Shown here: positions 35,792 through 62,487 of the stretch, piece by piece
Layout of the letters: every line of letters starts with the position of its first letter
How positions within the stretch are numbered: the first letter of the stretch is position 1
DNA from: Cyanophora paradoxa CCMP329
Lineage: Eukaryota; Plantae; Glaucophyta
Assembly (NCBI GenBank): GCA_004431415.1
Contig: QPMI01000427.1
Location: 116,030 to 180,029, forward strand
Reading direction: 5' to 3'
Length of the DNA stretch: 64,000 nt
Position numbers and translations under genes: made by a program
Notes under the pieces: model-generated
Seen by the model: only the letters and a program-made list of their open reading frames with translations
Databases searched by the model: none
Told to the model about the DNA's origin: nothing

Positions 35792-35838
35792 GAGCGTTTC
35801 TTCTCTTATCTTTGGGTTCAGAAAATAATTTACAGGGC

Positions 35839-36862: not shown

Positions 36863-36935
36863 ACACATATGAATATTCATATTTTAATCCCTCGGCGTTC
36901 CGCCTCAGGATTAAAATATGAATATTCATATGTGT
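36863..36935. repeat. Terminal palindrome/hairpin: 28-bp perfect arms, 17-nt loop
   Basis: acacatatgaatattcatattttaatcc (36863-36890) / ggattaaaatatgaatattcatatgtgt (36908-36935). Confidence 0.92.
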
Positions 36936-37653: not shown

Positions 37654-37874
37654 TATAGGGGGAATCTTGGGCAGATGCTGAGGTTTTAGTGTAAGGAAAT
37701 CGAACATTATTCTAATTATTTGACATTGCTTAATGTAGGGTGCATTCATATTTCGGCTACATCATACAGTAGAATTTCTATCGTAAAGAATGACCGGAAT
37801 CCGGAAAATAATCATTGTAGAAAGCTTTTGTAATAAAAAAGGTAAATCACCCTGATTGTCATTATAGAAACTCA

Positions 37875-43600: not shown

Positions 43601-46600
43601 GCTTTTGTGTGAGTATGGTCAAAATCTGTTATTTGCGCTTTTGTGTGAGTATGGTCAAAATCTGTGATTTGCGCTTTTGTGTGAGTATGGGCAAAATCTG
43701 TGATCTGATCTTTGGTGTGTGTGTGGTTTTGTATCCAACCTTGAACCACATTAGAGGTTGGATGATGTGGTAAATTTGCATTGCTTATAACTGTAAGGTA
43801 ATCTATTACAGTATCAGGTGAGGTTATTTTTAATCCTCTGTAAATATTCAGAGTCTGGGTATGAGTGAATCCATATTTTTGTTGAATGTAATACCTCACA
43901 GCATTCTTTTCAGAAGTTGTCAAAGCCCTATTGAAAACAATCAACTCGGAAATACCACCATTCACAATATTACCAAATCCGAAATGATTGACAGTATTAT
44001 CTGGTAGATAATTCGTTCCTACAAGTGTTTGAATATCTACTCCATTTAACCCGACTGTGTAGCTGTTTGGAGTAATTGTTTGGTCAGTGTAATACCATGT
44101 ATTTATTAAAGAAGGAACCGTAATAACTGGGCGGGTTTGGGATACTCCATTAATAGTAAACTGGTTCATTCCAATAGCAGTAGAAGATGTTGCCCCATAA
44201 TAACAATATCGTGATGGAGAGGCGCTTCTGTAAAGTCTCAAATGAACTTGCATAGAAGAGGTAGTTGGATGATATTTTCCCACAAAGAAAAATGTAAGCC
44301 CATTTGAGAAATCAATAGTCCTTGTAGCAGAGGTATATGCATAAAAAGTGCCTGTTGGGTTTGAAACACTAACTTGGTTGTTGATTTCGGGATTGGTGTA
44401 ATAGGAACTGGCTCCGGAGATAAACAAGTCTGGAACAACTGAATTCGGGACTCTGCTTACTATAGTTGTATACATTGCTGATTGACCTGGTACTCCTGAT
44501 GCCTTCCAAGCAAAAATGCAGTTCGAGATATTTGATGCTGGATCAAAGCTTGGTGGGACATCATACCATTCTTCGTAAACCTGATTCATGGTATTGAAAT
44601 TGCAAGAGCCAATTGTGAGGATTCCATTTACTTTCAAATTGCTGGTCTCTATATTGCTACTGTAAATATTACTATTAACTGTGAGGTTTCCTGTGATTGT
44701 CCCACCCACAAGAGGGAGATATTTGGATAGTTCTGCTGCAAGTTCAGCTTCTGTAATAAATTGATCAAGCATAGCAAGGGTTACAAAATTAACAAGGATT
44801 ACTGCAGTAAGGTAATCCTCTGTGACCACTCTCGAAATATTTTCGTTGTGTATGTTTTTTGCAGCCATCCTCTGATTGGCTTCCAGAACCCCACCATAAT
44901 CTGTTTTAATCCATGCAAGCTCTGCCCTCCCATAATTATCATTTGCAGTTCCCACTATGGGAATGTAGGAATATTTATCTCTGCTGAATACTATCATTGG
45001 TCTTGAGCCATCCAAACTGCTTACATCTGCTACATGAACCTGTATAGCAGAGTTGAAATTTTGGTAGGTTGCTGGGTCTGTTGGGACTCTGAATGTATCT
45101 GTGGGAATGTCAGCCTCCATGTAGCTTGACACAAAGATATTTGGTATGGTTGCTCCTGGTTCAGGTGGTGGATCATAAGAGCCTGGTAATGTCCTAATAT
45201 GAAGTGGTCCTCTCATAGCTGAATTCGCAAGTGTCCCATTCACATGAACATAGTGGTGATTCAAAAAGATCCTTTCAGGGACATTGCAAGTCTGGTAAAG
45301 AGAAACTCCCAGAGTAGCAAGAGGCTCAACTTTTGCAAATTCTGGTTGGTCATTGATCTCATCCCAGGTGTGTTCATGGTTGCTTGCTGCAAACTTATCT
45401 GGAATCCCATCAATATCACCCCAATCATGCCTGTGGTCTTCTGGTGGGTATTTCTGTGGTTTGCCTAAGATCTCATCCCAGTCATGATTGTGATCCTCTG
45501 GGGGATACTTTGCAGGTTTATTATTAATTTGTTCATAATCAGGAAAGAACTCCCAGATCTCAGGTCGAAATCCATCTGGTAATAGTTCCTCATGGGGTTC
45601 ATAAGGTTGCTCATAGTCAACAGCTGGTGGATCATGCCCATCTGGCAAATACTCCTCATCAGGTTCATAGTTCTGCTCATACTCAAACTCTTGAGGATCT
45701 AAGCCATCTGGTAGTATCTCCTCCTCATTGGGGTCAAATTGATCATATTCATATTCTTGTGGGTCAAAACCATCTGGTAAATACTCTTCCTCATCTGGGA
45801 CGAATTGATATTCATCAAGCTCTAATATATCGACTTCAGGAGGTAAATACTGCTCATCTATTTGCTTTCTTGGTTCAATTATAGGTTTATTGCGAACTTG
45901 CTCCCAACTAACAATATGCTGCCCAAAAGCAACTGTCTCATCTGCTGTGTACTCTCTGCCTGGTTGCTTTTTCGGTGTTAAATCCGGTGGATCCCATGGA
46001 AGAGGGAAGGGAACTGGGACAGGTCCATAATACTCAAAGATCTCTCTTATGGTCTTCTCACTTACAAGCTTCTCACCATTTGCATACACATTACTGCCAT
46101 GGATATTTCGCCATTGCCTGGTTCTAATTCCAAGGTCTTTCACATTGCTATACAAAGGCAAAAGGTGCCTATCCATTTCGACTAAATCAGGATGTAAATG
46201 GATTGCTACTGGTTGACTGGGGCTACTGTTGATTGTAATTGATGGCTTTTTTTGATGGACATCTTTTGGAGTAAAGAACCCAAAAGGCTCATTCCTTGCA
46301 AAGTCATATGTAATATCCTTGGGGTAGACATCATTTGTGTAGGAGACCTGATTTGTATTGGCAATGGGACCCACTTGCAATACTTGGGGGACCTCAGCTT
46401 TTGCAATGCTGCCCTCATTGTAAATTCGCAAAGCTGTGTTCTGTTTGCCCTGCTCATCTTGAACATTGAAAATCAATCGACCACTATCGAACCTGGAAGG
46501 TATATCTGGGTGAGTGCCACTGGTTTTTAGTTTCCTAGGTCTCCTTCTTGTTGCTTTGATCTCTGCCACTTGGTTTGCTTTCACATTACCCAAGCTAAAA

Positions 46601-46803
46601 GCAACACTAACTTCCTCCTTATCTGGATCGGTTTGATTCACAGATAAAGCATGCTCCCTTGATTGAGTCTTGGATGAATTATCGGAACTGTGGTCAATCG
46701 AAACTGAACCCTTTACTTTAATATTATCAAAGTTCACATGCTTGGTGCTGCTTGCATTATCATCTTGAATGGTTTCTAGATTTGGTGGGTAATTGAAGCT
46801 CAT
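40657..46803 (-). CDS. Phage-like tail fibre/spike protein with C-terminal peptidase S74 intramolecular chaperone
   Basis: GSDIRYKTDIKKI...RLGLIAQDVQKVIPEVV...LEYTGLIPVLIEAVKEL; HxH fibre repeats; YLPLxGGTxTG motifs; LamG-like ISELIVFNRALTTSE. Confidence 0.88.
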   Translation of the reverse strand: MSFNYPPNLETIQDDNASSTKHVNFDNIKVKGSVSIDHSSDNSSKTQSREHALSVNQTDPDKEEVSVAFSLGNVKANQVAEIKATRRRPRKLKTSGTHPDIPSRFDSGRLIFNVQDEQGKQNTALRIYNEGSIAKAEVPQVLQVGPIANTNQVSYTNDVYPKDITYDFARNEPFGFFTPKDVHQKKPSITINSSPSQPVAIHLHPDLVEMDRHLLPLYSNVKDLGIRTRQWRNIHGSNVYANGEKLVSEKTIREIFEYYGPVPVPFPLPWDPPDLTPKKQPGREYTADETVAFGQHIVSWEQVRNKPIIEPRKQIDEQYLPPEVDILELDEYQFVPDEEEYLPDGFDPQEYEYDQFDPNEEEILPDGLDPQEFEYEQNYEPDEEYLPDGHDPPAVDYEQPYEPHEELLPDGFRPEIWEFFPDYEQINNKPAKYPPEDHNHDWDEILGKPQKYPPEDHRHDWGDIDGIPDKFAASNHEHTWDEINDQPEFAKVEPLATLGVSLYQTCNVPERIFLNHHYVHVNGTLANSAMRGPLHIRTLPGSYDPPPEPGATIPNIFVSSYMEADIPTDTFRVPTDPATYQNFNSAIQVHVADVSSLDGSRPMIVFSRDKYSYIPIVGTANDNYGRAELAWIKTDYGGVLEANQRMAAKNIHNENISRVVTEDYLTAVILVNFVTLAMLDQFITEAELAAELSKYLPLVGGTITGNLTVNSNIYSSNIETSNLKVNGILTIGSCNFNTMNQVYEEWYDVPPSFDPASNISNCIFAWKASGVPGQSAMYTTIVSRVPNSVVPDLFISGASSYYTNPEINNQVSVSNPTGTFYAYTSATRTIDFSNGLTFFFVGKYHPTTSSMQVHLRLYRSASPSRYCYYGATSSTAIGMNQFTINGVSQTRPVITVPSLINTWYYTDQTITPNSYTVGLNGVDIQTLVGTNYLPDNTVNHFGFGNIVNGGISELIVFNRALTTSEKNAVRYYIQQKYGFTHTQTLNIYRGLKITSPDTVIDYLTVISNANLPHHPTSNVVQGWIQNHTHTKDQITDFAHTHTKAQITDFDHTHTKAQITDFDHTHTKAQITDFDHTHTKAQITDFDHTHTKAQITDFDHTHTKAQITDFDHTHTKAQITDFDHTHTKAQITDFDHTHTKAQITDFDHTHTKAQITDFDHTHTKAQITDFDHTHTKAQITDFDHTHTKAQITDFDHTHTKAQITDFDHTHTKAQITDFAHRHNWDEIDEQPVFAQLNAIGNVFNGVTLYQSSNTPERLFLNDHYVSLNGSFTGQDGTPMVGTLAVRLPRDPIVNGVYSGDFNVGINDTFPSIYVTNYHPGETGQVADFSAAIQVNVTDQSAYDGARPKIVFTREKVVNYLPVVGQPTDDHGKCEMAWIKTLSGGALEVNQRMAAKNLHNTTLSGVVTDDYLENKDYVTNTELQLAVTDFVTDTELTEALANYLPLTGGTVTGTVNATTLQIGGTTIPKGYDFDQLDVVSSDRSANNWTVTGWTPRTGQTGCYTTPQNDEDCSGCWMRWIKPEGMKSFYIQHMPWGNCRYFDIYGQTVNGYQHFLKRVNAYQVVQEVNQDGTHNCLLFVSINCEFYKYIYVQGRKGRIHLTGVFGWSRQRATDNELGMISWDNIFSKPSFYSAADLPATAKWTTNTWLKSVDAVERIWFGNGDCTYIRGRPNAENVCIEFRNQDDRDIMKIYKNGDINVNSVNADTDIRILDSKIPYSFMFDYSMNATQYSSISGGWSSGTGTAWDPYYNYGANLYNNESDDQTSSAWVQYTINANFYSSTAFITYLPWSNCRYFEVWGLNRNGNLVFITRVNSYHPYPEAYDGHHNGINNVAIQLGNRFTHLRIVCKVGRVHLMGIGFSRLWYMGSYGGHTGFYHWDNIYSKPNILTGAVGTWFNSSDGYNRIHFGNNTSTYLKGRGDIPLVFRNEQDTDICYMYHGGWMWIGGYLTQGSDIRYKTDIKKITGALSAIEKLEGVSFKRIGSEKDGTRLGLIAQDVQKVIPEVVNVKKDDGYLSLEYTGLIPVLIEAVKELSQKCKDLQDQIDQIKNVKV
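43150..43726 (-). repeat. 16 tandem copies of a 36-bp unit encoding HTHTKAQITDFD
   Basis: aaaatctgtgatttgcgcttttgtgtgagtatggtc recurs every 36 bp from 43153 to 43693. Confidence 0.95.
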
Positions 46804-46846
46804 GGCTTTTACTATATGGATTTATAAAATTCCTGATAAGTAAAAG

Positions 46847-48399
46847 ATGCCCTTGAAAATCTGCCTGTCTTTATCAGGGGAGGTGCAAGGGCATTATCAT
46901 AACCAGGCTGCTCAAAGAAATCGAAAATCGAACTGGCAGGAGAATAATCGATCTTGTGGATCTTGTAAGTGGAACTTCCACTGGTGGGATCATTGCAATA
47001 GGTTTGAATATAAGGCATCCTGATAAACCAGGTGAACCTAAACTGACAGCAAACGATTTACACAATATTTACCTAACTCAACTGCCCTTGATTTTCGCAA
47101 ATCCTCGAAATATCATCGAAAATGCCCTATTTAACACAAAGTATGATGTGGGACCCTTGGAAACTGCAATCAATTCAGTTACTGGTGAATCACTAATACA
47201 GGATTCCTTAAAGGACATTGTGATTACATCCTTTGATACTCAGAATATGAAACCAATATTTATCACAAATGACAACAATTACAACTTTATGCCTTGTAAG
47301 ATTGCTGCTAGGGCTACTTCTGCTGCTCCTACATATTTCTCTCCTGTAAGCATTGTTGATTTCAATCAGGGGTATTTGTCTGTCTCATTGATGGTGCCAT
47401 TTCGGGAAACAATAATCCCAGTGTGTGTGGTTACAGCCATGCAAAGAAGATTTACAGTGATGATGATGATATTATAGTAATAAGCATCTCTTGTGGTGAG
47501 GTGGACCCACATTTAGAGTCTGATTATGTGGGTTATGCTTATGAGACTGTAAACAGCTGGGGAATTCTCTCATGGATTGCCTCAACAGATGGAAGCCCAT
47601 TGATTAACATGCTCATGGCTGCAAGTGAGCTTTCTGCCCTTGATAAGATGGAGGAGTTGTTACCCTACAACTATGATCAGGATTATGGGAGATACTATAG
47701 GCTATCAGTCCCACTTCCAAATCACATAGTAAGCTCCCTTGATGACACTTCTAAAATCCCAGATATGCTAGCATTCACTGAAACATACATTGCAGCAAAC
47801 AATGATATGATTAATAAGCTTTGCAGCCTACTAGTAGCAAACTATGAACTAAAGAACCCTACAAAGGCTTACATCTCATCCACTCTCACTACATCACCTC
47901 CTTTGGATGCTAATTGGTATCAGCTTGCAGATGATGCCTTTACTGCCTCATCCTCTGTGACAGGTAAAGAGCCTTTCATGGCTAGACCTTCAGCATTTGG
48001 CTGGAAGCTGGAGCCTATGCTCCTGAACAGATATGGGAAACCCCCACTGAATACCTTCAAGTTGCTTTCCCGTATACTTTTGAACTCTCTTCTGTGATTG
48101 CCTATGGATCAGGGGACACCAATGCTTTTATTAAGACTTTCAATGTGGCAACATCCACTGATGGGATCAACTGGTCTTTTATTCGATCAGATGGGCAGAA
48201 CAAAATGTATATGTGTGAGAACATTAACAATGCTCACAACTCTGGTGATGTGGCTCTATTGAGTGGATTTCCTCTCAGCATCAAGGATGCTTTTTACATA
48301 GGTTTCTCTCTCAGAATTAAATATATTCGCATTTATCCCCTTGTGTATGTGAATGCTCCCACAATGAGAGTTGATTTCACAGGTGCCTTTATTCGATAA
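46847..48399 (+). CDS. Patatin-like phospholipase fused to a discoidin (F5/8 type C) domain, split by several frameshifts
   Basis: LSLSGGGA Gly-rich motif, GTSTG nucleophile, ARATSAAPTYF, IDGA...NNP; C-terminal FTASS...STDGINW...KYIRIYP...TMRVDF. Confidence 0.8.
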
Positions 48400-49321
48400 A
48401 CTCCAACTGAAAAGAATTATCGATTCCATTCATATCAATCAGTTCACCAAAGTAATCTTTAAACTCAACTGTGAGTTCCCTTATCACCAGGTTTCTGTCA
48501 TTGATTTGAATAAATTCTGCATGTTCACCACTATGGTAAACATAGCCACCTATATCTTTACTCAATTGTAATCTAAGGATAGCTCCCTGGTTTTGTGGTT
48601 GCGATTTCGGAATTATATTGTGTCTGCTGGCAAAGGGGGCTAGCTCTTTAATATGCATGTATAGATACTGCTCAGCATTCATATCAGACATCTTATTACT
48701 GGTGAAATAATACTGCAAGGGCTTAGATGAGAGTCTGGGTCCTGAAAAGGTGGTTCCCCATGCTGGGTGATCAGGTGTAATAGGTTTGCCATCATACTTT
48801 AACAGGTTCTCAGGTCGATAGGGTGATCCACCAACAGGAGGAGTGCTATAATACCCATTGGTGTATTCAGTAGAACTTACACCCAAAAGCTTCCCTATTC
48901 TCTGGTTGCTTGCAATAAAACGAAACTCATGGTTACTGTAAAACTCCACTTTATAGGTAGTTGGGTTATAGAATATCTTGAACTCAAAAGCTACTGTTTT
49001 GCCTGCAATGGTTTGGAAGCTTGAATAGTTCAGCCCATAATTATAAGGGTGTGTTACCCCAAAATGACCCTGATTGATGTAGCCACTGGGAAGGGGATAC
49101 ACTTGTTGTGTGATCACTTGGTTATATGAACCATCTTGGTAGTTAAAATCAACTGTTAAATGATCAGTTCCCACACTGTTATAGATACTGTTTGGAATCT
49201 CTGCATATAGAACCCTGCATTCCCTTGGTCTCTCTACTGGAGTTGTGAGGGTGACCCTGTAAGAGTTTTCAGATTCCCCTTGGCTTCTATCCCTGCTATC
49301 AATATTAACAAGTCGATTCAT
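48389..49321 (-). CDS. Minor capsid (penton-like) protein
   Basis: NIDSRDR...YRVTL...AEIPNSIYN; LTVEFKDYFGELIDMNGIDNSFQLEF. Confidence 0.8.
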   Translation of the reverse strand: MNRLVNIDSRDRSQGESENSYRVTLTTPVERPRECRVLYAEIPNSIYNSVGTDHLTVDFNYQDGSYNQVITQQVYPLPSGYINQGHFGVTHPYNYGLNYSSFQTIAGKTVAFEFKIFYNPTTYKVEFYSNHEFRFIASNQRIGKLLGVSSTEYTNGYYSTPPVGGSPYRPENLLKYDGKPITPDHPAWGTTFSGPRLSSKPLQYYFTSNKMSDMNAEQYLYMHIKELAPFASRHNIIPKSQPQNQGAILRLQLSKDIGGYVYHSGEHAEFIQINDRNLVIRELTVEFKDYFGELIDMNGIDNSFQLEFIE

Positions 49322-49350
49322 TTTAATATATAAATATAGATAAAAGAAGA

Positions 49351-50361
49351 ATGCCTGTGGATTACATCGAGGTTAGCTCATTTAATACAATCTCTGGTGA
49401 TGGTCCCACATCAAGCTTTGTGGCTAGACTCCCAAGTTCTTATGAGAATGTGAGGGCTGTGAGACTGGTATCAGCCGAATTTTATAACAGCATCCCTATG
49501 GTGAGTGGGGAAACCAAAGTAGGAGATGTAACAATCGACAATTCATTTAGTATTTACTATTCTGAAGAACTTGCAGGAGCTGGAATTGATGGTATCCCCA
49601 CAGTTCGCCCAGCTGAGGACTTTGAACAGTGGAAACAAATCATTATAAGTCGCAAAGCCCCCATCCAAAGCCACCAACAACTGGTGAATGTTATTAATGA
49701 AAAGTTCGATTTAAAAAATCCTAAACCATCTCTTCGCTGCAAATGGGATGAGTCACTGAAACGAATAGTATTCCATTCCGAAAAAAAGTTTTACCTGGCT
49801 TTCTCACTTGCTGTAAATCCAAACCTGCAAACAATTCAAAAGCTATTGAGTTCAGGTAGACTGCTTGGTCTTGATCCTGGAAGATATGGCAATTCCTCAA
49901 TCCAATCACAAGTTTATGATGCTCTCACTGATGGTATCTTTACTGGGACTCGAGTGAACGGTATTCTATCTTCTTTTGAGCCTGAGAAGACCAGGGACAG
50001 TGTTTTGTTTGTGAGAGTAAAGGAGCTGGGTGATCTGGTGCAATGTGGGGATGGTCTTCTGACTGGTTACTTCCATAAAATAGTGGTCCCTGACAAAGAC
50101 TATGGTGAGCATGTAGTTTACAATTCGACAGAGGCTCATCCACTTTACAAATACTATAATAAGAAGGTTGGATTATCCACTTTCTCGGTTGATATTGTAA
50201 ATGCTATTAATGAACCAATTGATTTTGAGGGTCAACCTGTTCATCTGACCTTTGAAATTCGCTATGGTGATGAGCCAGCTGGGGACCCAGTTTATGAATA
50301 CTTTAAGATGAGAATGTCACAGCTTCACCCTTCCTATCCAGTTATTACAAGCTTCGCATAA
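49351..50361 (+). CDS. Second minor capsid (penton-like) protein
   Basis: FVARLPSSYENVRAVRLVSAEFYN; FSVDIVNAINEPIDFEGQPVHLTFEI. Confidence 0.78.
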   Translation: MPVDYIEVSSFNTISGDGPTSSFVARLPSSYENVRAVRLVSAEFYNSIPMVSGETKVGDVTIDNSFSIYYSEELAGAGIDGIPTVRPAEDFEQWKQIIISRKAPIQSHQQLVNVINEKFDLKNPKPSLRCKWDESLKRIVFHSEKKFYLAFSLAVNPNLQTIQKLLSSGRLLGLDPGRYGNSSIQSQVYDALTDGIFTGTRVNGILSSFEPEKTRDSVLFVRVKELGDLVQCGDGLLTGYFHKIVVPDKDYGEHVVYNSTEAHPLYKYYNKKVGLSTFSVDIVNAINEPIDFEGQPVHLTFEIRYGDEPAGDPVYEYFKMRMSQLHPSYPVITSFA

Positions 50362-50414
50362 ATTAAGGATCATTGGTAGATTTTTTATGTTGCAGTATAA
50401 TAAAAGAGAATATA

Positions 50415-51782
50415 ATGGATATCACTTCCACTCTTCAAAGACTTTCGCTGAAAGAAGCCCTAACAACCCCAGAGGAGGCGAAAGCCTTTTTCCTGGATAA
50501 CTCCCTTATGCTTGGTCTCGAATCCAAGTCTAAGCCAGTTCTAGTTGTTGTGAATCCCAGCAATACTTTTGAGAATAATGTTGGAAATCGCATTTCCTTC
50601 AAGCTACCTCGCTACAATTTCTGTGGAAAACTCGAACTTGCTTTCGACCTTCCAGCCATCACTTTTGCTGGTGATACGGACCTTGTTCGCAATGGATACA
50701 CTCGCCCTGTTGGTGCTTTAGTTCAGCGACTTGAAATTACCTATGGATCTTACACCTACCACATTCCTTCTGATTTCCTTGCTCATTTCCCCCTGGTCTA
50801 TTATTCGGAGGATCAACTAGCTAAAAAGAAACGATCAATGGGCATGGTTCATGGTATCCCTGCTCATGGAACCAACCGACTTGGTGGCTCATTTTTCGTT
50901 GAAATCCCTGTGCCTTGGCTAAATCACTATCTTCCCCTTGGTGCTTTATCTGGTGAAATGGTTGTTACTGTTTGGTTTAAGGATGCTGATAAGGGTTATG
51001 TTGAAACTTCCTATGGTGGTCGTGAACTCACAACTGCTGTTGGAACTGTTGATGCAACTGCTGATGATGGTCTTGGAAACTTTACAGATGGAACCCTTGC
51101 CCATGTTGGTCAAAATATCACAACTTTCAGTCTTGGTGCAACAACCCCTGTCATTTCTATTACTTCTCCTCGCCTTTACATGCATGCTATTAATGTTTCT
51201 GATGAGCTTTTCGCTACTGTAATTGAAAAAGTAAAGACTACTGGCATGGCTATTCCTGCTCTAGACATTGGATTTGTAGATGCTAGTGCTTTCCCTGCCA
51301 AGGGCAATGCCCAACCCAATCGAATTAACCTCTCTCAAATCTCAGGTCTTGTATATGCTCTGCTTGTTTCAGTTCGTGATAATGCAACTGTTGATAAATC
51401 CAATGGCTCCCACAGTGTTCTTAAGACCTATGCCAACTCCAAAGACATAACATTCACAACTGAAATAAATGGACAGCGACTTTTTGCCACTGAGCCAATT
51501 TCCCTACTCAAAGGTGCTGAGCTAATTGCTGATGCCTTCAAATGCTCTAACATGGACAAGGTTGCTGATCGCTATGTCCTTTCAGGACTCCCATTCTGCC
51601 TTGATGGAGAAAAGGCAATTCGAAATATTGCCCAGTCTGGTTATGTTGATTTAACAAATTCCTCTTCTTCCTTCCTCACCCTCTACATGCCTTCAGATAA
51701 GGTAATCGATGTTAATGTTCGCGCTCTCATGCATTCGTTCATAATTGTAGACAAAGATGGATTACGTCGTATAAATTTGTAG
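50415..51782 (+). CDS. Major capsid protein (double jelly-roll, PLV type)
   Basis: 455 aa beta-rich; GNRISFKLPR...LELAFDLP...LVQRLEITYG, YLPLGAL; located between minor capsid protein and packaging ATPase. Confidence 0.85.
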   Translation: MDITSTLQRLSLKEALTTPEEAKAFFLDNSLMLGLESKSKPVLVVVNPSNTFENNVGNRISFKLPRYNFCGKLELAFDLPAITFAGDTDLVRNGYTRPVGALVQRLEITYGSYTYHIPSDFLAHFPLVYYSEDQLAKKKRSMGMVHGIPAHGTNRLGGSFFVEIPVPWLNHYLPLGALSGEMVVTVWFKDADKGYVETSYGGRELTTAVGTVDATADDGLGNFTDGTLAHVGQNITTFSLGATTPVISITSPRLYMHAINVSDELFATVIEKVKTTGMAIPALDIGFVDASAFPAKGNAQPNRINLSQISGLVYALLVSVRDNATVDKSNGSHSVLKTYANSKDITFTTEINGQRLFATEPISLLKGAELIADAFKCSNMDKVADRYVLSGLPFCLDGEKAIRNIAQSGYVDLTNSSSSFLTLYMPSDKVIDVNVRALMHSFIIVDKDGLRRINL

Positions 51783-51847
51783 ATTGTTACGATATTCAGT
51801 CACCATGCATTATTTTTATCTGTATTTATTTAGAAAGATATACAACA

Positions 51848-52543
51848 ATGAATGATTTGGATGAATTTGTGGCTGGTGAAATGATAGAACCACCATTTCG
51901 AGTCCTAGCAATTGGGAAATCAGCAACTGGTAAATCAGAAGCTGTAAAATATTGGTTGAAGCAGTTGCATGATGCCAAAAAGATTGATGTTGTATTAGTT
52001 GTGAGTGGAACCAGCTTCAATCATTTCTGGGATAAAGTTGCAACATTGCAACTGGGAAAATGGGATGCCCCTTACATTGCTAAATTGCTAGATGAAAGGC
52101 AAGAGAAAATAGAAAAAGGTGAACCTGTTAACCAGTTATGTGTGGTTCTAGATGATTTAATCGATAATGAGATTGTAGACCTAACTCGTGATAAAATTAT
52201 TGGCTCTCTGTATTCCAGAGGTCGCCATTCGAAAATATCCATTATCTGCATCACACAAAAGCTAAGGAAAGTCTCGTCGACTATTCGAGTTAATTCTGAC
52301 TATGCTATGTTTCTCAGTGCTGCTAATCGCAAAGAACTTGAAGCCATAGAGGAAGAATACAATATAATGCGAAATAAAGAGGATTTCTACAAGATGTTTG
52401 AAGAGTATGTTCACTCCTATCAATATATCATTTGGTCCTCTGCAAACTACTCAGTTAAATACTATGTAGATAAAGCTGAGCTTGTGAAAGATTTCCCATT
52501 TCCTCGCTTCCACAGGAAGCCAAAAAGAAAGAGGATGAACTGA
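51848..52543 (+). CDS. A32/FtsK-HerA genome packaging ATPase
   Basis: GKSATGKS, VVLDDL, RGRH, ITQK, IRVN. Confidence 0.92.
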   Translation: MNDLDEFVAGEMIEPPFRVLAIGKSATGKSEAVKYWLKQLHDAKKIDVVLVVSGTSFNHFWDKVATLQLGKWDAPYIAKLLDERQEKIEKGEPVNQLCVVLDDLIDNEIVDLTRDKIIGSLYSRGRHSKISIICITQKLRKVSSTIRVNSDYAMFLSAANRKELEAIEEEYNIMRNKEDFYKMFEEYVHSYQYIIWSSANYSVKYYVDKAELVKDFPFPRFHRKPKRKRMN

Positions 52544-52657
52544 AACCACCAGAAAAAGAGGAAGCCCCCAAAGAAGTGAAAAGCCAAGTCCATAGCAATA
52601 AATTGATGCGATATAAACGCGGTTTATAAAATTATCTCTCATTCTAATAAAGATACA

Positions 52658-53392
52658 ATGCCTCCCAAACGAAAGATAGGGATTCCAGCTGGGGCTGTTG
52701 GCTATTCAGGTGGTGGAAACAATGGATCCATTAACACAGATCCACTGAAGTTCAATGGTATGAATGAGGTAAAGCCCTCACAGCAAGAAGAGGACCCTCT
52801 TAATGCTGCCTATGAGGAATCAGTCGATGACAAAGCCCCACAAGCTTCAACCAGTGACCAACTCAACATCTCACCTGAAGCTTCGAAAATGAAAGCTGTT
52901 GCTGAGGGTGCCAGGCGAATTATTGGTGCTGCTGATGATAAAGGTTTAGGCTTGCAAGATCTGTCATTGGCTCGCAAAGGTGAAGGTCTTAGTAAGGAAT
53001 CAGACAAGGTAATCCAGTCTATGGCTGGTGAAGTCACATATAAGACTGCTCCCACTCAAAATATTCATCGAATTCCCAAGGCTCAATGGGATGAGATGAC
53101 TGCTAAACTCAAAGACTTGGAAGCCAAATCCAGTGCCTTGGAGCAGTATGTTACTGAGAAGAAAGAGAGAGCTAAGCTAAAGGAGATGCTTCGAAAGGAA
53201 GTTTATAAAATGGGTATTACTGGTGTCCCAGATAAACAGTTTATTGCTAAGAAAGAGACCCAAATCGATGAGCAGGCAGTAGATGAAATGAAAACAAAGA
53301 CCCAAAAGGGAACTATTGAACCTGGTGCCACCAAAGCTGAAGTAGAAAAGGGAGTAGCCCCAGCAGTATATAAAAGACGAGTTTGGCTTTAA
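52658..53392 (+). CDS. Conserved hypothetical protein
   Basis: Homologue of 32089-32772. Confidence 0.75.
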   Translation: MPPKRKIGIPAGAVGYSGGGNNGSINTDPLKFNGMNEVKPSQQEEDPLNAAYEESVDDKAPQASTSDQLNISPEASKMKAVAEGARRIIGAADDKGLGLQDLSLARKGEGLSKESDKVIQSMAGEVTYKTAPTQNIHRIPKAQWDEMTAKLKDLEAKSSALEQYVTEKKERAKLKEMLRKEVYKMGITGVPDKQFIAKKETQIDEQAVDEMKTKTQKGTIEPGATKAEVEKGVAPAVYKRRVWL

Positions 53393-53414
53393 TTATCTCT
53401 GTTTTATTAGAGAT

Positions 53415-53687
53415 ATGGACATAATACGAAAGTTCTTCGAGATGTTCAGTCTGCATGTGGTGAGCAATTGCCACAGTGGATGTTGTGAGACAACAGTGGA
53501 GTTTGAGATGTCAGATAATGAGGATAATGCCTCAGAAGCAAGAGAGAGAAGGAGGTCTACAGTTTCTGTGGAATCAATGCCAGCAGACCCCACAGAGTAT
53601 ACATATGAGCAACAGGAGTATCCAAGGAGAAGTTCTCTGCCAGCAGAAAACGTTTTCTCTGGGAATATAAATGGAGGACACTATTAG
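53415..53687 (+). CDS. Conserved hypothetical protein (HVVSNCHSxCC motif)
   Basis: Homologue of 31494-31889. Confidence 0.8.
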   Translation: MDIIRKFFEMFSLHVVSNCHSGCCETTVEFEMSDNEDNASEARERRRSTVSVESMPADPTEYTYEQQEYPRRSSLPAENVFSGNINGGHY

Positions 53688-53916
53688 TTTAATCGAGTTT
53701 ACCAGTGATGAACCTGTTACTGAGGGTTCTATTAGACACATTCTAGCAATGCAGAAACGATATAGAGAGGACCCAGCATATAGAGAGTATAAAAAGCAGC
53801 AAGCCTTGGCATCCTATTATCGAAGAAAAGCCCAAAAAGAGGAGCAGAGACCCAGAGGTAGACCAATTAAATATTATTTGCCTACTGAAAGTAGCAATGG
53901 ACCCCCAGGTCTATAA
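53671..53916 (+). CDS. Small basic protein with AT-hook-like RPRGRP
   Basis: QKRYREDPAYREYKKQQA..YYRRK...RPRGRP resembles the neighbouring basic protein. Confidence 0.6.
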   Translation: MEDTISLIEFTSDEPVTEGSIRHILAMQKRYREDPAYREYKKQQALASYYRRKAQKEEQRPRGRPIKYYLPTESSNGPPGL

Positions 53917-54068
53917 GATAATTGAGAAAAAGCGGTCTCAGTATGCCACTGAGGCAGCTATAAAAGTTTACAGACAGGAACTGGTGTTCGCAACAAAAAA
54001 TGACTTAAGGAAAAAGTAGATAGATTGTATTGAGGAAAAATTATTTTCGTATCTACTATTAAAGAGAA

Positions 54069-54473
54069 ATGCCGAATATCCGCAAGATACTCACAGATGA
54101 TGAAAAAGCAGAGAAGCTGAGACTGAAAAGGGAGCAAGATGCCCAAAGAAAACGCGAAGCCTATCATAAAAAGAAGCAGGAACGATTATCCCAAGGAGCC
54201 GCTACAGTTCACACACCAGAAGAACTCAAAAAGATTGCCCTCAGACACCAGAGGAAATACAGGGAAAATGAAGAATATCGCGAGCAAAAAAGGCAAAAGC
54301 GCTGGAATATTACCACAAGAAGAAAGATGAACAGCCCAAGAAACCCAAAGAGCATAAACCGGTTGGAAGACCTCGGAAATATATCGAAGAATAAATTCTC
54401 GATCGAAACAAATTTTGTAGAAATCGATTTGATCGGAGGCAAAAAAATGACAGCTTTCTTCCCTCTTTTTTAA
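54069..54473 (+). CDS. Basic coiled-coil protein
   Basis: Homologue of 30901-31392; C-terminus probably frameshifted. Confidence 0.78.
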   Translation: MPNIRKILTDDEKAEKLRLKREQDAQRKREAYHKKKQERLSQGAATVHTPEELKKIALRHQRKYRENEEYREQKRQKRWNITTRRKMNSPRNPKSINRLEDLGNISKNKFSIETNFVEIDLIGGKKMTAFFPLF

Positions 54474-54611
54474 AACTGTACCTATATATCGAGACAGTAT
54501 CCCGACCCAAAACTACTTAAGGACTTGGCAAATAATAGGATATATATAAAAGACAATTCCTCCTTCCGAAATTATTTTCTTCGTTAAAGGTAGAAGTCCC
54601 CAAAATCGAAA

Positions 54612-57205
54612 ATGAACAAAATCGAGAAATTCGCCACCCCTGTTGAAAATGCTACATTCCTTAGTACTCTCATTGGTGATCGCAACAAGGTCACCCATGT
54701 ATTTGATTCTGCCGAAGATGCCCTTGAAGCCATTGATAATAGCAAGGTTAAGACCTGGGCTGAATGCATTCAACCTGAGCAAGTGACCAGAGTTTACCTG
54801 GACCTGGATAAATTCGCTGATTTGAAGGAGAACATTGCTGATAACTATGCTGAGGCGGAAACTGTTGTAAGAGAGATGAGAGATAAGCTATGGAAGCGAT
54901 CTGGTACCACTTCTATTAACGATATTGCTGTTGCAGTTCGCCATAGAAGGGTTTATTTGATTAAGGAGGATGTCACCAAGTTCAAGATTTCAGCCCACTT
55001 TATTATTAAATCGCTTGCATGCAAACATGAAGATATCCCCAAGCTTTTCAAAGCGATGGGATTGGTGAAAAATGAGGATTATGACAGTGGAGTTTACAGC
55101 TCCACACAGAACCTAATCTGCCTCAATTGCTGCAAAGGTGAGACTCTGGATGCTCAAAATAAGTCGAAAAAAGATGTTGATAAAAACGTTTGCTTTAAGA
55201 AATTCGTTGACTGTGACAAAGTGTTAATGCGAAATGAGGACTTCTTTGTATCTTACTTCTCAGCTACTACTAAACTTGTGGATGAATCAAATATTTCTGC
55301 ATTTGCAAATTATACTCCTGAGCCAAAACCAGTTAAAAAGGAGCCAAAAAGTGATAAAGTGAAGACTGAGAAGGTAGAAGCTGAAAAAGACACTGAACCC
55401 GAAAATCCTGTTACTTTCGAACTGCTACAAAGTGTTATAATGGGTCTCAATGCTGAAAGAGCCAGCGAGTATAAGACTTGGATTGATGTTGGACTGGTCA
55501 TCATCAATGTTGGGGAAGACAACAAATTTACCCCTAAAATGCAGGCTGAACTCTTCCACCAATTCTCAGAACAGAGTGACAAGTATGATTATGATGAATG
55601 CCAGGAAAAGTTTACACAGCTTCGCAGAAGCAAGAAGAAGGCTGAGCCTGGCAAAGTGTTGACCTTCAAATCCTTGGTTTATTGGTTGAGCAAAGATAAC
55701 AATGAGCTTTTCAAGGAACTCTTCCCCAAAAAGTATGCATTCCTACCAGAGGACACAGATGAAATCGATTACAAGACTGCAAGTATCCCTCCTTTGGCTG
55801 AACATTACAATGTGCATAAGAGGTATTTCAATGCTCGCATGCATCATGTTGAAAATGTTGGTTGTGTGATGCTCTGGGATGAACAACTACTTTGCTGGAT
55901 GCCCAAAGACATTGGAAAACTGTCTACAAAGCATTTCCCCACTTGATGCATAAGGTGATTGTGAATGAGGGGACAGATAATGAGAAAGAGAAATGGGAGC
56001 AATCATTTAGGAAATGGATTGTGGATCCAACAGCCACAAGATCAACTTACATGGATTTCCTCCCACCTCCTGCTACTCTCAGTGCAAAATGCAAGTCTGT
56101 ATTTAATCTCTATCCAGGAATGAAGGTCGACCATCAGCAATTCGAAAATGCTCCAGAGGATGTAACTGCTGAGATGATTAAGCCTTTCCTTGATCACTTG
56201 TTCTTAATGTCTGGTGAGGATCAAAATACCTATGAATATCTGTTGAAATGGTTTGCCCACATGCTGCAAAAGCCTGGGGAACTCAATGGAGTATCCTTAA
56301 TCTTCATTGGTGAACAGGGAACTGGTAAGAATGTGTTGGTTGATACTTTCCAAAAGAAGATACTTGGAGATGCCCTGAGTTATGCAACTGGTAAGCCAAA
56401 AGAGGATCTGTTTGGTCGATTTGCCCACAATAGAGAGGATAAGATCTTGATTGTTGTGAATGAAGCCTCAGGCAAGGACACATTCGAAAATAATGATATG
56501 CTTAAAGATCTCATTACTTCTGATAAGATTGTTATTGAACACAAAGGGATAGATTCATACACAAAAAGCAACTTTGCCAGGATTATATTCACCAGCAATA
56601 ACAACATTCCAGTTAAAATTGAAGCTGGAGATAGGCGATTTGTGGTTGTTGAAGTTAGTAAGAAATTCGCAAAGGATAGGTCATACTTCCTTCCACTTGT
56701 AAAATGGCTTAATGATCACTGCAATATTCGAAACATTGCCCACTATTTGAGAACCAAAGTTGAATGTGAGGATGTGAACTGGATTGCTGATAGACCCCTT
56801 ACAAATAAATACTATTTAGCCCAGCAGGTGTGCGCTCCAATCATCCTTATGTTCACTAAGTGGCTTGTGGATCGAGGCTTAATTTCCGAGAATAAATGCA
56901 AGTCTGGTAGCCTTGTGGAAACCTGGAAATGGTTCCAGGAGTTCATTACCAGCAATAAATATAAAAACGATTATAATAGTCGCAGATATTATACAGAAAT
57001 GCGAAGTGTTACATATATCCAAGTGAAAACTACAAATGGTAAACAATACTATCATTTCCTATTCCCACAAGTATTTGAGGAATTCAGAAAGATGAAGCTT
57101 GTAGATGATGAGACCATTGAGGAAGAAGCTAATCCAAGGATGAAACAAGAACTACCTGCTGCTGATCCTGATGCATCAGATTATGACTCTGATGTTGAAG
57201 TTTAG
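54612..57205 (+). CDS. AEP primase + PriCT-2 + SF3 helicase (one frameshift near 55935)
   Basis: RVYLDLD, KISAHFII, DSGVY; YKTWIDVG...FHQFSEQSDKYD; GEQGTGKN, VVNE, FTSNN, GDRRF. Confidence 0.9.
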
Positions 57206-57397
57206 GTTTACTCAAAAGTGGACTCACAGTTGACTCAAATTTATCATAAAAGACCCAAACAGTCTTTTATTTATGGTTTATTTATCGATTAGGTTGACTA
57301 AGTGGGGGAGTTGACTCATTTTTTCACAGATTCTAAAAGAGGACTCTGCCCTAAAAAGAAATAAAAAGTGCCTCAACTCCACCCACTAAGTCAACCA
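57206..57397. promoter_or_regulatory. Putative replication origin: internal degenerate copy of the TIR iteron block
   Basis: aaagtggactca..gttgactca, ggttgactaagtgggggagttgac and inverted tcaactccacccactaagtcaacc match motifs at 63275-63460. Confidence 0.6.
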
Positions 57398-57447
57398 AAA
57401 AATGATTTAAGAGATAGAAAAATATATTTATATGTAACTAGTAAGAA

Positions 57448-57798
57448 ATGGCTGGAACAGATCATGATTCTGGATCGATCTATATGATTGAGAGTCAGGA
57501 AATGAACAAAGTCTACATAGGAAGAACCTCACAGCCACTTCAAAAAAGATGGAGACAACACAAATCAGGTCAAATGCCATCTACAGCAGACCTATGCAAG
57601 GCTTCTGATGTGAAGTTCTCAGTCCTGTATTCAAGTAAGAAGGGTGGGCATGAAGACCTTATGAACAGAGAAGCATATTACATGTATTTGTTTGAACCTT
57701 GGATAGTCAATCTACAAAAACCGAAATCTCGATTTAGGATTAATAGGTTTTTGCGATTTCATTCAGAGGAAGCCAATGGATCCATTAAAACATTTTAA
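57448..57798 (+). CDS. GIY-YIG endonuclease
   Basis: GSIYMI...KVYIGRT...KRWRQH...REAYY...VN. Confidence 0.85.
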   Translation: MAGTDHDSGSIYMIESQEMNKVYIGRTSQPLQKRWRQHKSGQMPSTADLCKASDVKFSVLYSSKKGGHEDLMNREAYYMYLFEPWIVNLQKPKSRFRINRFLRFHSEEANGSIKTF

Positions 57799-57858
57799 AT
57801 TGCGTTTAGAACATCCTAAAATAAAATATCCCCTTAGAATAGGAACAAGTTAGGAATA

Positions 57859-60800
57859 ATGCCCCGAATTACCAACAAACTCATAAGGGAGAAGAAATGG
57901 GAACTCATGGGATTGCTGGGAACACTATATGCAGCCCATGAAATAACAGAGGCTGAATATGACCGGGAAATAGATTTAATTGCAAGGGGCAGACCCACTT
58001 TAAGCAGATTAACCAGAAAAGCAAATAACCTATATGATAAAATTGAAACCTTGGATGAACTGGATAGGCTTAGGCAAATAGAACCAGAGGCAGAAGATGG
58101 AACAGCCATGAATGAATTATATCGCTGGCTCACTTACAGAGCCAGAAGGGAAGTTGTTGTAGATGTGATTGAATTCCTGGACAGAATTGCTACATCCCTT
58201 CCTAATCGATTAAAGCAGGGTTTAGATCAATTCAGGGCAATCAAGGTTCGCTTGTCTTTTATCTGCAAGTTCGTAAAAGTGAGCAATCCACAGGTTTGGA
58301 TATCGAAATACATTTACAGTGATTACTTTGTATTAACCAGGTCGAGAAATATTCGAACTGAGCTGAATAAAGCAGCCCAAATGTGTCAGGAGCAGATGAA
58401 TGTGGTTGATAGCTATCGCTTAGAAAGAATTGAAATACTCAGAGTGGCTATTATGAGTTATGCTCCAACTGGTGGTTGCTTTCTACAAACCCAGAGTGGA
58501 TTGCTAGGAAGAGAGCCACAGTGAATATTCGAAATATTGATGATTCCTGCTTCGAAAATGCGATTTTAGCCTCGATTTACAGAAAATCTATTAACTCCCA
58601 TAAGAGGAATGAGCTTTCACAATATCGCAAATGGAAATACTCAGCAATCGCTTATAATCCGCTGGCTCTGAATTTCGATAACATCCCATTCCCTGTTGCC
58701 TGTGATGCTGAGATTATTGATAAATTCGAGGCTCAAAATGCAGGCATTAGCATTAATATATTTGGAATCGATGGAGAGGTTATTTATCCCCTGCATCAAT
58801 CCAGTAACCCAGGCAGAAAGCATAAGGTTAATCTCATGCTGATATTTGATGATGAAGGGAATGGTCATTATATTACAATCATGTCCCTTTCAAGATTATT
58901 GAAAGTAAACCATGAAACATACAATGATCAAAAGTTACACTACTGTGATACATGCTTATCTCGATTCAGGTCTGAGGCTAAACTCACTGCTCATGTGGAC
59001 TCAAACAGATGCATTGATTGGAGACTCTCAAAGGGAATCACCCCTAAACCTGAGACCACCATAGAGTTTGGACTGAAAAACCTCAGGAAAACTGTGTGGC
59101 TTCCTGTTGTGGTTTACTGCAAGATTGAACATAGAAGCATCCCCATTGATGCATCGAAATCCAAAAGGGAAGTCTCAGCAGTCAACCTGAGAGTAGTCAC
59201 TGGGGAAGATGTTCAAGATTTTCGATTTGAGGGCAGGATCCAATGGGAGGTCTCTTTGAATGCTTGGAGTCCAAAGCTAGAGAACTAATCGATTTCCTGT
59301 TCACCAATATTCCAATGAATGAACTCACAGATGAGCAAAAGGCTATTTACAGGGCTACTAAACACTGTTACCTTTGCAGTGAGAGGTTCACTAAGGAAAA
59401 CTTCAAATGCAGAGATCATGATCACCACACAGGTAATTACATTGCACCTGCATGCAGAAACTGCAATCTCCATAGGAGAATCTCAAAGCAAACCAAAGTT
59501 GCAGTTGTTGTTGACCAAATGGATGACTGTGGGACATTCATTTTCAGAAAAATAGCAGGCATGGGTGATAAAAAGCGAATCGAAATCCTTTCGAAAAACT
59601 TTGATCAATACCTGTCATTGCAATGGGTCTTTACAAGTTCATTGATGCAAGCAATTTCATGGATTTTGGAGCTGCTGATGTAGATGAGTTAATGAACAAA
59701 TTCCAGGCTTTTAGAAGGCTTTCACACTCAGTATATGGATTGGACCCAGTTCATTATGTATCTGCACCTGGGTTATCTTGGGATGCTATGCTTAGGACCA
59801 CCAAGGCAAAAATAGAGCTTATAAGTGATGTAGAGCAATACGAATTTGTTGAGAGGGAATCAGGGGTGGCTTTGCAACAATGCCTTGTAGGTATGCTGAG
59901 GCTGATGGTGAAAACTCCCACATTATGCTGTTTGATGCTAACAACTTGTATGGCTACTGTTTGAGTCAGCCAATCCCAGTTGGTGATTTTAGATGGGAGA
60001 CCGAATTCAACCCACAAGATAACAGATCCAGTTTCCTGGAAGTTGATCTGGATTACCCAATTAGGCTATATCTAGACCACAGTGATTTCCCCCTAATTAT
60101 TAACAAGAAAATAGTAGAATATGCCGAATTATCACAATATCAAAAGAGCCTATTAGATCTTTCAGGAGAAGAGCTTGATAAGACCCCTAAGCTAACTGCA
60201 ACCTTTGGTTCTGTGACCAACTATGTGATTTCTGAGCCTCTTCTACAGTATCTGTTGGACAAAGGTGTGAAATTAAAGAAAGTTCACAGGGTCCTATCAT
60301 TTACTGTGGCTCCTGTCATGAAACCCTATATTGAGCTGAACACTGAGATGAGAAGGAAAGCAGTGAATAAATTCGAGGCTGATTTCTATAAGCTCATGAA
60401 TAACTCAATCTATGGGAAATGCATTGAATCTTGCAGAGGTAGATCTGTGGTTAAGATTGCAAACAGTGAGAAACTGTTTATGAAATATGCAGCCTCTCCA
60501 TTGGTGAAATCAACAAGCCCCATAAACGAAAGAGCAGTTGCCTTTGAGTTTTACACAAAACATGTGAAGCTAGATAAGCCAGTTGCCATTGGAGCCTATG
60601 TTTGGATGCAGCCAAACTGCATAATTACCAGTTCTTCTATGATACTGTAAGGTCCCAATGGTCCAAAGCCAAATTACTGTTCCATGATACTGATTCCTTT
60701 TGTCTATATATCGAATCTAAGACCTTACAAAAAGATATAGAGAATATATCTTATGCCTTGGACCTAGGGGGATCTAACAGAATGACCCCAGGTAAATACA

Positions 60801-61099
60801 AAAATGAGATGCCAGGTTCTGCTATATTGGAGTATGTGGGTCTCAGAGCCAAAGTTTACAGTTTCAGAACTGCTGAGATTGAGAGGAGTAAGCTCTCTGG
60901 GACTTCAACTGAGGAACTCCAATTTAATGATTTTAAGCAGTGTTTATTTGCAGGTATCAGCAAGACTGTGACTGCAAAGCAGAAAAGAAGGGCAGATCAC
61001 ACAATAATAGACACTGTGAGTAGAAGGGTTGCCCTAAACTGCTTTGATGCAAAGAGATACATCTTACCAGATGGTATTAATTCTGTTCCTTTTAATTAA
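57859..61099 (+). CDS. Protein-primed family B DNA polymerase (Polinton group-2-like, with endonuclease VII-like insert), split into about six frames
   Basis: NIRNIDDSCF...HYITIMSLSRL; CYLC...RDHDHHTGNYIAPACRNCNL; GLDPVHYVSAPGLSWDAML; FDANNLYG; YKLMNNSIYGK; HDTDSF; YVGLRAKVYS; FDAKRYI. Confidence 0.92.
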
Positions 61100-61102
61100 G
61101 AG

Positions 61103-62487
61103 ATGCCAGCAACTGGAAGAATAGTTAGAAGAACCACTGAGCAACTGCAAGGTAACCTACTGCCCATCACAGTTCCAAAGGAGGAAAAGGGGAATCTCGA
61201 ATTGTCAAAAAATCAGAGATGAAAGAGCTTGTCCCAGTAGAGATCCCAGTTGCTATTGCAGTGAAAGAAACTAGCAAGATTGCCAAGAGATTCTATGATG
61301 TGAGGACTGGTTACAAAGGGCTTCAAGCTATGAGAGCTGAGTTACCAGATGAATCCTATAAGCAGTTGCAAGAGTTCTATAAAAAACAAGAAGTTGTTCA
61401 GATCAATGCACCTGCTATATCTAGGAAGAGAGATCCCATGGTCCCAATTAGGCAACCCCTTGATACCTATGTGATTGATTTGCTCTTTTTCCCAGCTTAT
61501 AAGAAACAAAACAATGGCTATGATACATTTATGACTGCAATGGAATCAACACTGAGAACTGGGTATATTATACCTATAAGAGATAAATCAGCTCTCACTA
61601 CATTGGCTGCATTTAAACAGCTTGAGATGAGAGTGGCAAGACCAATAGTAAAGGTTCAATCAGATGCTGGGAGTGAATTCCAAAATCGAATATTCCAGGA
61701 GTATTTATCTAGTAAATACATAGAACACCAAGTGAGTGGAACTGCAGACCATAGAAGCCAAGGTCGAATTGAAGCCTTTAACAAGCAGATTAAGAGACTG
61801 ATCACAAACTACTGCATAGCTAATAACACAGCTAGATTCTTTGATGTGTTAGGTGATATTGAGTATAATTACAATAATACAGTTCACTCAGCTACTAAGA
61901 TGAAGCCAGGCGAAACTACAGAGGAGCATTATAGGTATATAGTGGGATTAGAAGATGAAAGATTCAAGAAATCAATAGCTTACCTTGATACCATGCAGCC
62001 TGGCATGTTTGTTAGAGTGAAAGTTGAGAAGAACCCCTTTGCTAAACAGGGTAACAATTGGTCTAGGATGGTTTACACTGTTGATAGTAGGGAAGGCTTT
62101 AAGTTTAAGCTAAGGAGTCCCACTGGTGAGATCATAGAAAACAGGTTTGCTTTCCATGAGCTGTTGCCTGTGAATGCAGTTGAATATCTAGAAACCCCTA
62201 CAGTGGATGCCTTAGAGCAAGCTAAAGAGGAAGCTAGGGTTGATGCTGCTATAAGGAGAGAAGGCATAGAAGCTGCTAATGAAGTCCCAGATAAGCCTTT
62301 GATAGAGGCTAGGAAGGAGAAGGCTGGGAAAGTTAATAGGGAACTCAAAAAGCTCACCATAGCAGGCACACAGAAACTTTCAGAAGTGAATAGCCAGAGA
62401 TGGTATAGTGACTTTCAGACTACTAAGGAGTCATATACAGCCCCTAAACCTCAAAGAACACTAAGAGAGAGGACCAAAACTAGCTAG
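61103..62487 (+). CDS. Retroviral-type (rve) integrase of PLV-2 (frameshift near 61190)
   Basis: YVIDLL (D), VQSDAGSEF (D), QGRIEAFNKQIK (E), YNNTVHSATKMKP; N-terminus GRIVRR...LPITVP matches PLV-1 integrase. Confidence 0.92.

Follow-up and report, generated by a model that had tools for sequence, protein, structure and literature searches.

Missing restriction-like words in two predicted endogenous Polinton-like viruses of Cyanophora paradoxa, and flank-graded CpG loss in one of them

We analysed a window of 64,000 nucleotides from the glaucophyte Cyanophora paradoxa CCMP329 (contig QPMI01000427.1, positions 116,030 to 180,029 of the forward strand). Positions 1 to ~22,500 are host DNA with a G+C content of 57-68% and an observed/expected (o/e) CpG ratio of 1.1-1.2; a 144-bp sequence occurs there twice, at 17646 and 21406. 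Two AT-rich elements follow, which we term PLV-1 and PLV-2, for Polinton-like virus (PLV). PLV-2 has lost most of its CpG dinucleotides to an extent graded by the flanking bases, and both elements lack a set of short, restriction-like words. The features on which we rely are collected in Table 1.

We identify PLV-2 as a probable endogenous PLV, given its double jelly-roll (DJR) capsid gene, A32 ATPase, protein-primed DNA polymerase B (pPolB), integrase, terminal inverted repeats (TIRs) and many copies. The major capsid protein (MCP) has no Pfam match; a Foldseek search with its predicted model (predicted local distance difference test score, pLDDT, 45) returned DJR capsids as all of the top matches (E 2e-12). 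Two relatives of the MCP were found among 1.84 billion representative proteins, and the best relative is a C. paradoxa protein (60%). A GIY-YIG nuclease is also encoded, and the open reading frames (ORFs) at 48389-50361 have no Pfam match. PLV-1 carries an A32 ATPase, a capsid gene and a replication protein of 1436 aa that includes an SF1 helicase domain, and is a distant homologue of PLV-2 by integrase and S-adenosylmethionine (AdoMet, SAM) decarboxylase (identities in Table 1) and by capsid (~32% through common relatives). A hairpin with 35-bp arms (36863-36935) marks the junction of the two elements, before the left TIR of PLV-2. As PLV-1 stops at this hairpin with no right TIR of its own, PLV-2 may be nested inside PLV-1.

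Table 1. Coordinates of annotated features, in window positions.
Feature	Position	Strand	Remarks
Host retrotransposon ORF (reverse transcriptase, RT)	2559-8573	-	Host-resident control
PLV-1, second predicted endogenous PLV family	22600-36860		G+C 45%; left edge approximate; ends where PLV-2 starts
D12-class amino-methyltransferase (predicted), PLV-1	23489-24298	+	Sole PDB match 7M6B (M.CbeI), E 3e-9
AdoMet decarboxylase, PLV-1	24330-24722		Homologue of PLV-2 gene
rve integrase, PLV-1	25102-26484	-	78 CpG, o/e 1.06
PLV-2, predicted endogenous PLV	36922-64000		~27 kb; G+C 39%; right end at or beyond window end
Left TIR, PLV-2	36922-37655	+	13 CpG, 0 VCGB
AdoMet decarboxylase, PLV-2	37875-38273	-	48% identity to PLV-1 copy
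Fibre protein, PLV-2	40657-46803	-	2048 aa; PTR repeats and Peptidase_S74; distal part (40657-43790) without CpG depletion
MCP, PLV-2	50415-51782	+	Fold search of low-confidence model: DJR
A32 packaging ATPase, PLV-2	51848-52543	+	Pox_A32, 3.8e-11
Primase (PriCT-2) and helicase (DUF5906) ORFs, PLV-2	54612-57205	+	Pfam domains
pPolB, PLV-2	57859-61099	+	DNA_pol_B_2, 1.5e-10; several ORFs in assembly; 33 CpG, 2 VCGB
rve integrase, PLV-2	61103-62487	+	rve 1.2e-4, below curated cut-off; 37% to PLV-1 rve, E 1.6e-13
Right TIR, PLV-2	63270-64000	-	Versus left TIR: 1 substitution and 5 single-base gaps over ~730 nt

Both PLVs are repeated families, with thousands of variant contigs aligning in three runs of the one organism (3,770-8,439 contigs per run for PLV-2). 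Single PLV contigs reach depths of up to 1,400-1,800 in run X3, versus 31-47 for unique host contigs. Summed contig depth, which is not copy number, is higher for PLV-2 than for PLV-1, and little of PLV-1 is covered in the presumed-RNA run.

A first-pass annotation, made from the letters alone, had described PLV-2 as strongly depleted of CpG except in TCG or CGA context and PLV-1 as not depleted. Its individual observations are reproduced: the PLV-2 integrase gene holds exactly four CpGs, all CGA and three of them TCGA; positions 25102-25300 of PLV-1 hold 14; and TCG or CGA accounts for 26 of the 29 CpGs of the MCP gene, 31 of 33 in pPolB and 10 of 11 in the patatin gene. Across 44400-62487, PLV-2 retains 214 CpGs (o/e 0.29). 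We define VCGB as a CpG with neither a 5′ T nor a 3′ A and a half site as one with a single such flank. TCGA is found 82 times versus 65 expected (1.26), half sites 110 times versus 306 (0.36) and VCGB 22 times versus 359 (0.06), and 192 of the 214 CpGs are TCG or CGA (90% versus 51% by chance, p 5e-34). The sparing is confined to TCGA; the TCG and CGA half sites are themselves depleted about threefold. PLV-1 is indeed undepleted (o/e 1.29) but is not a clean negative, as its CpGs weakly follow the same trend (TCGA 2.02, half sites 1.47, VCGB 1.04). TpG/CpA is in excess in PLV-2 (o/e 1.25) but not in PLV-1 (0.93). Grouped by the 5′ dinucleotide, PLV-2 stands at 0.10-0.17 of the PLV-1 level for TA, TC and TG and at 0.28-0.50 for CT, AT, CG and TT.

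To set these counts against a null, we shuffled synonymous codons 300 times within 24 ORF stretches of PLV-2, excluding a 36-bp tandem repeat. VCGB is observed 53 times versus 206 ± 10 in the shuffles (minimum 177), and TCGA 86 times versus 84. Because this null preserves codon usage, it understates the CpG loss. At synonymous sites, the odds ratios for a coding-strand and a template-strand C, respectively, are 0.41 and 0.93 in TCGA, 0.13 and 0.18 in TCGB, 0.14 and 0.21 in VCGA, and 0.08 and 0.07 in VCGB. TCGB and VCGA do not differ (p 0.88 and 0.71), showing that a 5′ T and a 3′ A protect alike on both strands. Equal protection of this kind points to an agent that reads the double-stranded CpG dyad, and flank symmetry is the prediction for a dyad methylated on both strands. 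In a logistic model the flank effect in PLV-2 is symmetric and additive, with VCGB odds of 0.07 multiplied by 1.93 per flank in all ORFs, and of 0.023 multiplied by 3.80 per flank once two undepleted modules are left out (22 of the 24 stretches). The corresponding values for PLV-1 are CpG odds of 0.98 and 1.51 per flank (z 3.6), and its slope differs from that of the PLV-2 core (z 4.6).

The same tests bear on the proposal that the signature was produced by composition, by an RNA-level CpG sensor or in a former host with such a methylation bias, which we regard as very improbable. The stronger depletion of coding DNA would fit it, as would the lack of any close DNA relative, which leaves the history impossible to polarise: relatives with DNA amount to one distant locus among viral contigs and one among metagenome contigs, which show neither the CpG gradient nor loss of GGCC and are too distant for polarising changes. 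Codon or amino-acid composition, which the first-pass annotation had named as a possible refutation, is excluded as the cause by codon shuffling and by the synonymous sites. A ZAP-like RNA CpG sensor is expected to leave a coding-strand-specific flank effect; the effect in PLV-2 is equal on the two strands and symmetric under reverse complementation, which argues against an RNA-level form of the sensor that the annotation had proposed beside a methyltransferase. A former host is disfavoured by the direction of the gradient, which is common to both PLVs. We also rejected avoidance of CGA-to-TGA stop mutations as the reason for CGA sparing, since TCG is spared equally and in all three frames, and protection by adenine methylation (GATC or ApT), since TTCG is spared more than ATCG.

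CpG depletion spans most of PLV-2, with three exceptions: the distal fibre module at 40657-43790 (CpG o/e 0.75, no context bias), ORF 54069-54473 (o/e 0.94) and positions 62488-63270 (32 CpGs versus 25.7 expected). PLV-2 as a whole keeps 83 VCGB sites, 43 of them inside the fibre module, and the loss of this class is hence not all-or-none. The distal fibre is likely a recently gained module. The other two segments fall in low-depth contig bins, which fits their being recently exchanged modules. Within the fibre gene, positions 43100-43790 consist of the 36-bp tandem repeat, with HTHTKAQITDFD units and one GCGC per unit. Contig depth across the primase-helicase module (53960-57940) is several-fold below that of its flanks, which suggests module exchange among PLV-2 copies.

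Seven long ORFs of PLV-2 run uninterrupted by stop codons and contain, between them, 32 CGA codons in frame. Together with TIRs that are a single substitution apart, these open frames indicate that the CpG loss arose in a replicating lineage under purifying selection and not in this copy; on the same two grounds we rejected in-situ hypermutation resembling repeat-induced point mutation. The frameshifts seen in the PLVs are likely assembly errors, because most sit in base runs that are one base longer elsewhere: of 17 single-base insertions checked in other copies, 11 from 12 rows for PLV-2 and 6 from 12 rows for PLV-1, 14 lengthen a same-base run.

Our reading of the CpG loss, held with about even confidence for and against, is that a symmetric CpG methyltransferase, likely the host DNMT1 or DNMT3, has eroded the element. 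An enzyme that works poorly beside a 5′ T or a 3′ A, most likely DNMT1 with DNMT3, would methylate the PLV-2 provirus, and as the virus repeatedly integrated and reactivated, methylcytosine would turn into thymine. The genes would be kept open by purifying selection, the dropping of silencing targets might be favoured, and decay would be yet to come in newly acquired modules; the weak trace in PLV-1 suggests a shorter or weaker exposure. C. paradoxa is reported to possess DNMT1 and DNMT3, with 32% mCG and with methylated repeats and viral genes (PMC12344493), and methylated viral genes are also described in Amoebidium (PMC11244446). In vertebrates, the flank effects of DNMT1 are described as additive and symmetric, CTCGAG ranking lowest and TGCGCA highest (PMC13082072), and its flank ranks include TACGTA at 1, TCCGTA at 2 and CGCGAG at 254 of 256 (PMC7381644); the 5′-dinucleotide levels of PLV-2 given above agree with this in outline. 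The expectations of 5-methylcytosine (5mC) decay that PLV-2 displays are a CpG deficit at synonymous sites, an excess of TpG/CpA and symmetric, additive flanks. The context-selective methyltransferase of the first-pass annotation thus stands as regards long-term action, the exclusion of composition and the fit to a flank-selective enzyme, and falls short on the host control described below.

Several observations weigh against this interpretation. The host retrotransposon, a control of one ORF that may or may not be methylated, has no CpG loss (VCGB 505 versus 522 shuffled, CpG odds 0.94), so the expectation that other host repeats decay alike fails for this ORF. Host DNA also has a CpG o/e above 1, and host methylation leaves no visible erosion in the host repeats here. 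Nor is the control perfectly flat, since a 3′ A carries odds of 2.76 (z 2.7), which an interaction term of negative sign counterbalances. PLV-1 is likewise multicopy in the same host and is undepleted, and non-coding PLV-2 DNA is more mildly affected than coding DNA (CpG o/e 0.87 over 2145 nt). Among 40 of the 1,943 differences between copies, three remove a CpG and two create one, a sample too small to reveal ongoing loss. The available supplement text of PMC12344493 gives no mCG by flank for Cyanophora. The flank ranking of vertebrate DNMT1 is reported to be absent in Arabidopsis, which makes the analogy to a glaucophyte weak. CTCG is, moreover, not the most-spared TCG in PLV-2, and the comparison with DNMT1 covers few ranks.

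An alternative that we think improbable is selection in place of mutation, with variants carrying fewer well-methylated CpGs evading host silencing and reactivating more often. It is in line with the uneroded host repeats, with the higher summed contig depth of PLV-2 noted above and with the scarcity of arginine codons in VCGB context, which matches that at synonymous sites (10 of 105 CGN codons, versus 94 of 171 in PLV-1). Long-term CpG mutation, however, also depletes CGN codons. Depletion is also weakest in non-coding DNA, the part in which silencing should have the greatest effect, and PLV-2 tolerates VCGB-rich modules.

A separate process, which the first-pass annotation had missed, appears to have acted on both PLVs. 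We tested 480 motifs per element and 11,424 bipartite patterns per region; the comparisons with shuffles given here use 300 codon shuffles. GGCC is absent from 22,600-64,000 versus 52 expected, and the first 21.4 kb of the window contain 244 copies of it. Relative to shuffles, PLV-1 has GGCC 0 versus 18.9, CTAG 0 versus 17.2, CTNNAG 0 versus 36.1, GGWCC 1 versus 9.5 and GTAC 6 versus 30.5; for PLV-2 the values are GGCC 0 versus 24.2, GTAC 4 versus 55.2, CTNNAG 39 versus 85.1 and CTAG 29 versus 47.5. By the same shuffles the host retrotransposon shows no avoidance of these motifs. Bipartite words are purged as well: GGAN7TC in PLV-1 (0 versus 28 expected, P 6e-13; shuffles 0 versus 22) and AGCN6TC in PLV-2 (6 versus 47 expected, P 9e-14), with best P values of 1e-5 and 9e-8 in the host controls. 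Each of the two words occurs at a normal level in the other PLV, and both depletions survive codon shuffling. GAYN5RTC, TGAN8TG and CAAN7TC were set aside, as they do not clearly survive it. Other words are avoided on one strand: the plus strand of PLV-2 (37700-63200) has 5 GCAC versus 37 GTGC, in genes of either orientation, and PLV-1 (22600-36860), in which most genes lie on one strand, has 3 GCAG versus 45 CTGC and 20 GAGG versus 64 CCTC.

The word purge extends to the proteins. Gly-Pro occurs 0 times in PLV-1 versus 8.2 expected and 6 times in PLV-2 versus 19.4, and Trp-Pro 0 times versus 1.4 and 3.8, together 0 versus 5.2. An amino-acid cost of this kind suggests that selection was strong, in contrast to the graded loss of CpG; the 43 VCGB sites of the fibre module likewise indicate that VCGB is tolerated, unlike GGCC. 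The all-or-none word loss probably reflects selection imposed by restriction enzymes that the PLVs encounter while replicating, with co-infecting giant viruses as the most plausible source. A host nuclease sequestered from the nucleus is an alternative to be taken seriously; a nuclear restriction-modification (R-M) system seems unlikely, as non-CpG methylation in C. paradoxa is reported to be near background (PMC12344493).

As regards the host sequence, positions 12000-21500 are enriched in the short palindromes CATG, TGCA, CTAG and AGCT, the reverse of the viral bias. The distant pPolB-bearing viral contig mentioned above (L001:1-9821) has GTAC 5 times versus 14 expected and GCGC 2 times versus 8.

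The restriction-type footprints also bear on the CpG loss. A giant-virus C5 methyltransferase with a short CG-core motif, with or without a nuclease, could have acted on replicating PLV-2, PLV-1 using a different helper; we rate this as unlikely, though worth entertaining. Consistent with it, both PLVs bear such footprints with partly different word sets, the host retrotransposon is uneroded, and the G+C contents of the PLVs, far from the 57-68% of the host, suggest that most change took place away from host chromatin. A 5mC RCGY methylase adjoining a nuclease is reported from an algal giant virus (PMC13196603), and giant-virus insertions are described in the C. paradoxa genome (PMC12344493). 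Against it, the loss is graded, with VCGB sites left in PLV-2; an enzyme hemi-methylating VCG or CGB without maintenance would strike the C of TCGB and VCGA unequally; and RCGY, which we rejected as the sole motif, leaves the losses of CCGC, CCGG and ACGG unexplained.

Giant-virus R-M as a weapon against virophages has so far been a matter of proposal (PMC7253447, PMC13196603 and PMC12220804). In the algal giant virus AaV, CTAG and CTNNAG are among the motifs that are methylated (PMC12700378). ChlorV has RCGY and CAN6TG motifs with methylases that differ by strain, and suppression of virophages was proposed (PMC13196603). A study of cryptophyte PLVs proposed their Dam-like methylases as a shield against giant-virus or host nucleases (PMC12220804). 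For the mimiviruses of Acanthamoeba, PMC7253447 reports no support for R-M against virophages, and it cites the elimination of AGCT in pandoraviruses as unexplained and judged not to be due to R-M. We see an evenly poised case for the broader proposal that the PLVs preserve traces of an arms race against R-M systems of giant viruses, in which an arsenal of Type II, Type I-like and Type III-like sites would have been purged, the differing word sets would reflect different helpers, and a C5 methylase of a helper or of the host may have left the TCGA-sparing CpG loss. If true, the restriction of virophage-like PLVs by giant viruses would have support from sequence, and enzyme specificities of glaucophyte giant viruses could be predicted from the words that the PLVs lack. 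Missing words also offer a cheap genome-wide test and a way of pairing PLVs with helper viruses, and the CpG gradient could be used to read out which flanks a glaucophyte methyltransferase prefers. The decay of CpG, the flank bias of DNMT1 and the avoidance of restriction sites are each already known; for PLVs or virophages, our search of the open-access literature found neither word avoidance nor TCGA-sparing CpG loss described.

Some genes of the PLVs touch on methylation. The M.CbeI target, which we take to be GGCC, is not thereby assigned to the predicted PLV-1 methyltransferase, as a match of this strength assigns no target. Contig depth falls across that gene, which may be absent or diverged in many PLV-1 copies. 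AdoMet decarboxylase, present in both PLVs, might serve polyamine synthesis or, speculatively, drain SAM from methylases or SAM-dependent nucleases. An HNH-AP2 endonuclease gene (33691-34407) adjoins the PLV-1 capsid gene, and low depth and joining contigs show its absence from other copies. In the host, relatives of the retrotransposon ORF bear a tyrosine recombinase domain, and its RT region is 100% identical over 501 aa to EP00741_Cyanophora_paradoxa_P000034 (EukProt).

Compared with known systems, PLV-2 resembles 5mC-deamination decay (PMC12344493) in its loss of CpG and gain of TpG/CpA, in being a repeated viral element and in residing in a host described as methylating viral genes, and departs from the usual form of such decay in that the host genome and retrotransposon are undepleted, the loss is steeply flank-graded and the ORFs are open. 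It also resembles vertebrate DNMT1-UHRF1 as described in PMC7381644 and PMC13082072, an enzyme with symmetric, additive flank effects for which a hexamer of TCGA core ranks lowest and ACGT, CCGT and GCGC cores rank high. The enzyme preference was measured in vertebrates, whereas that in PLV-2 is read from a sequence footprint in a glaucophyte virus, and the order at position -2 differs, TTCG and ATCG being spared above CTCG. The word purge resembles restriction-site avoidance in phages (T7, EcoP15; PMC3874151), where one-strand bias lets T7 escape Type III enzymes, in the near-zero palindromic, bipartite and one-strand words and in the loss of forced dipeptides; in contrast to those phages, the PLVs are viruses of a eukaryote within the host genome, and their CpG class is graded. 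Two of the words purged from PLV-1 are the AaV methylation motifs (PMC12700378). The available text of the giant-virus R-M papers (PMC12700378, PMC13196603, PMC7253447) gives no footprint in a virophage or PLV, and the PLVs described here provide a candidate for one.

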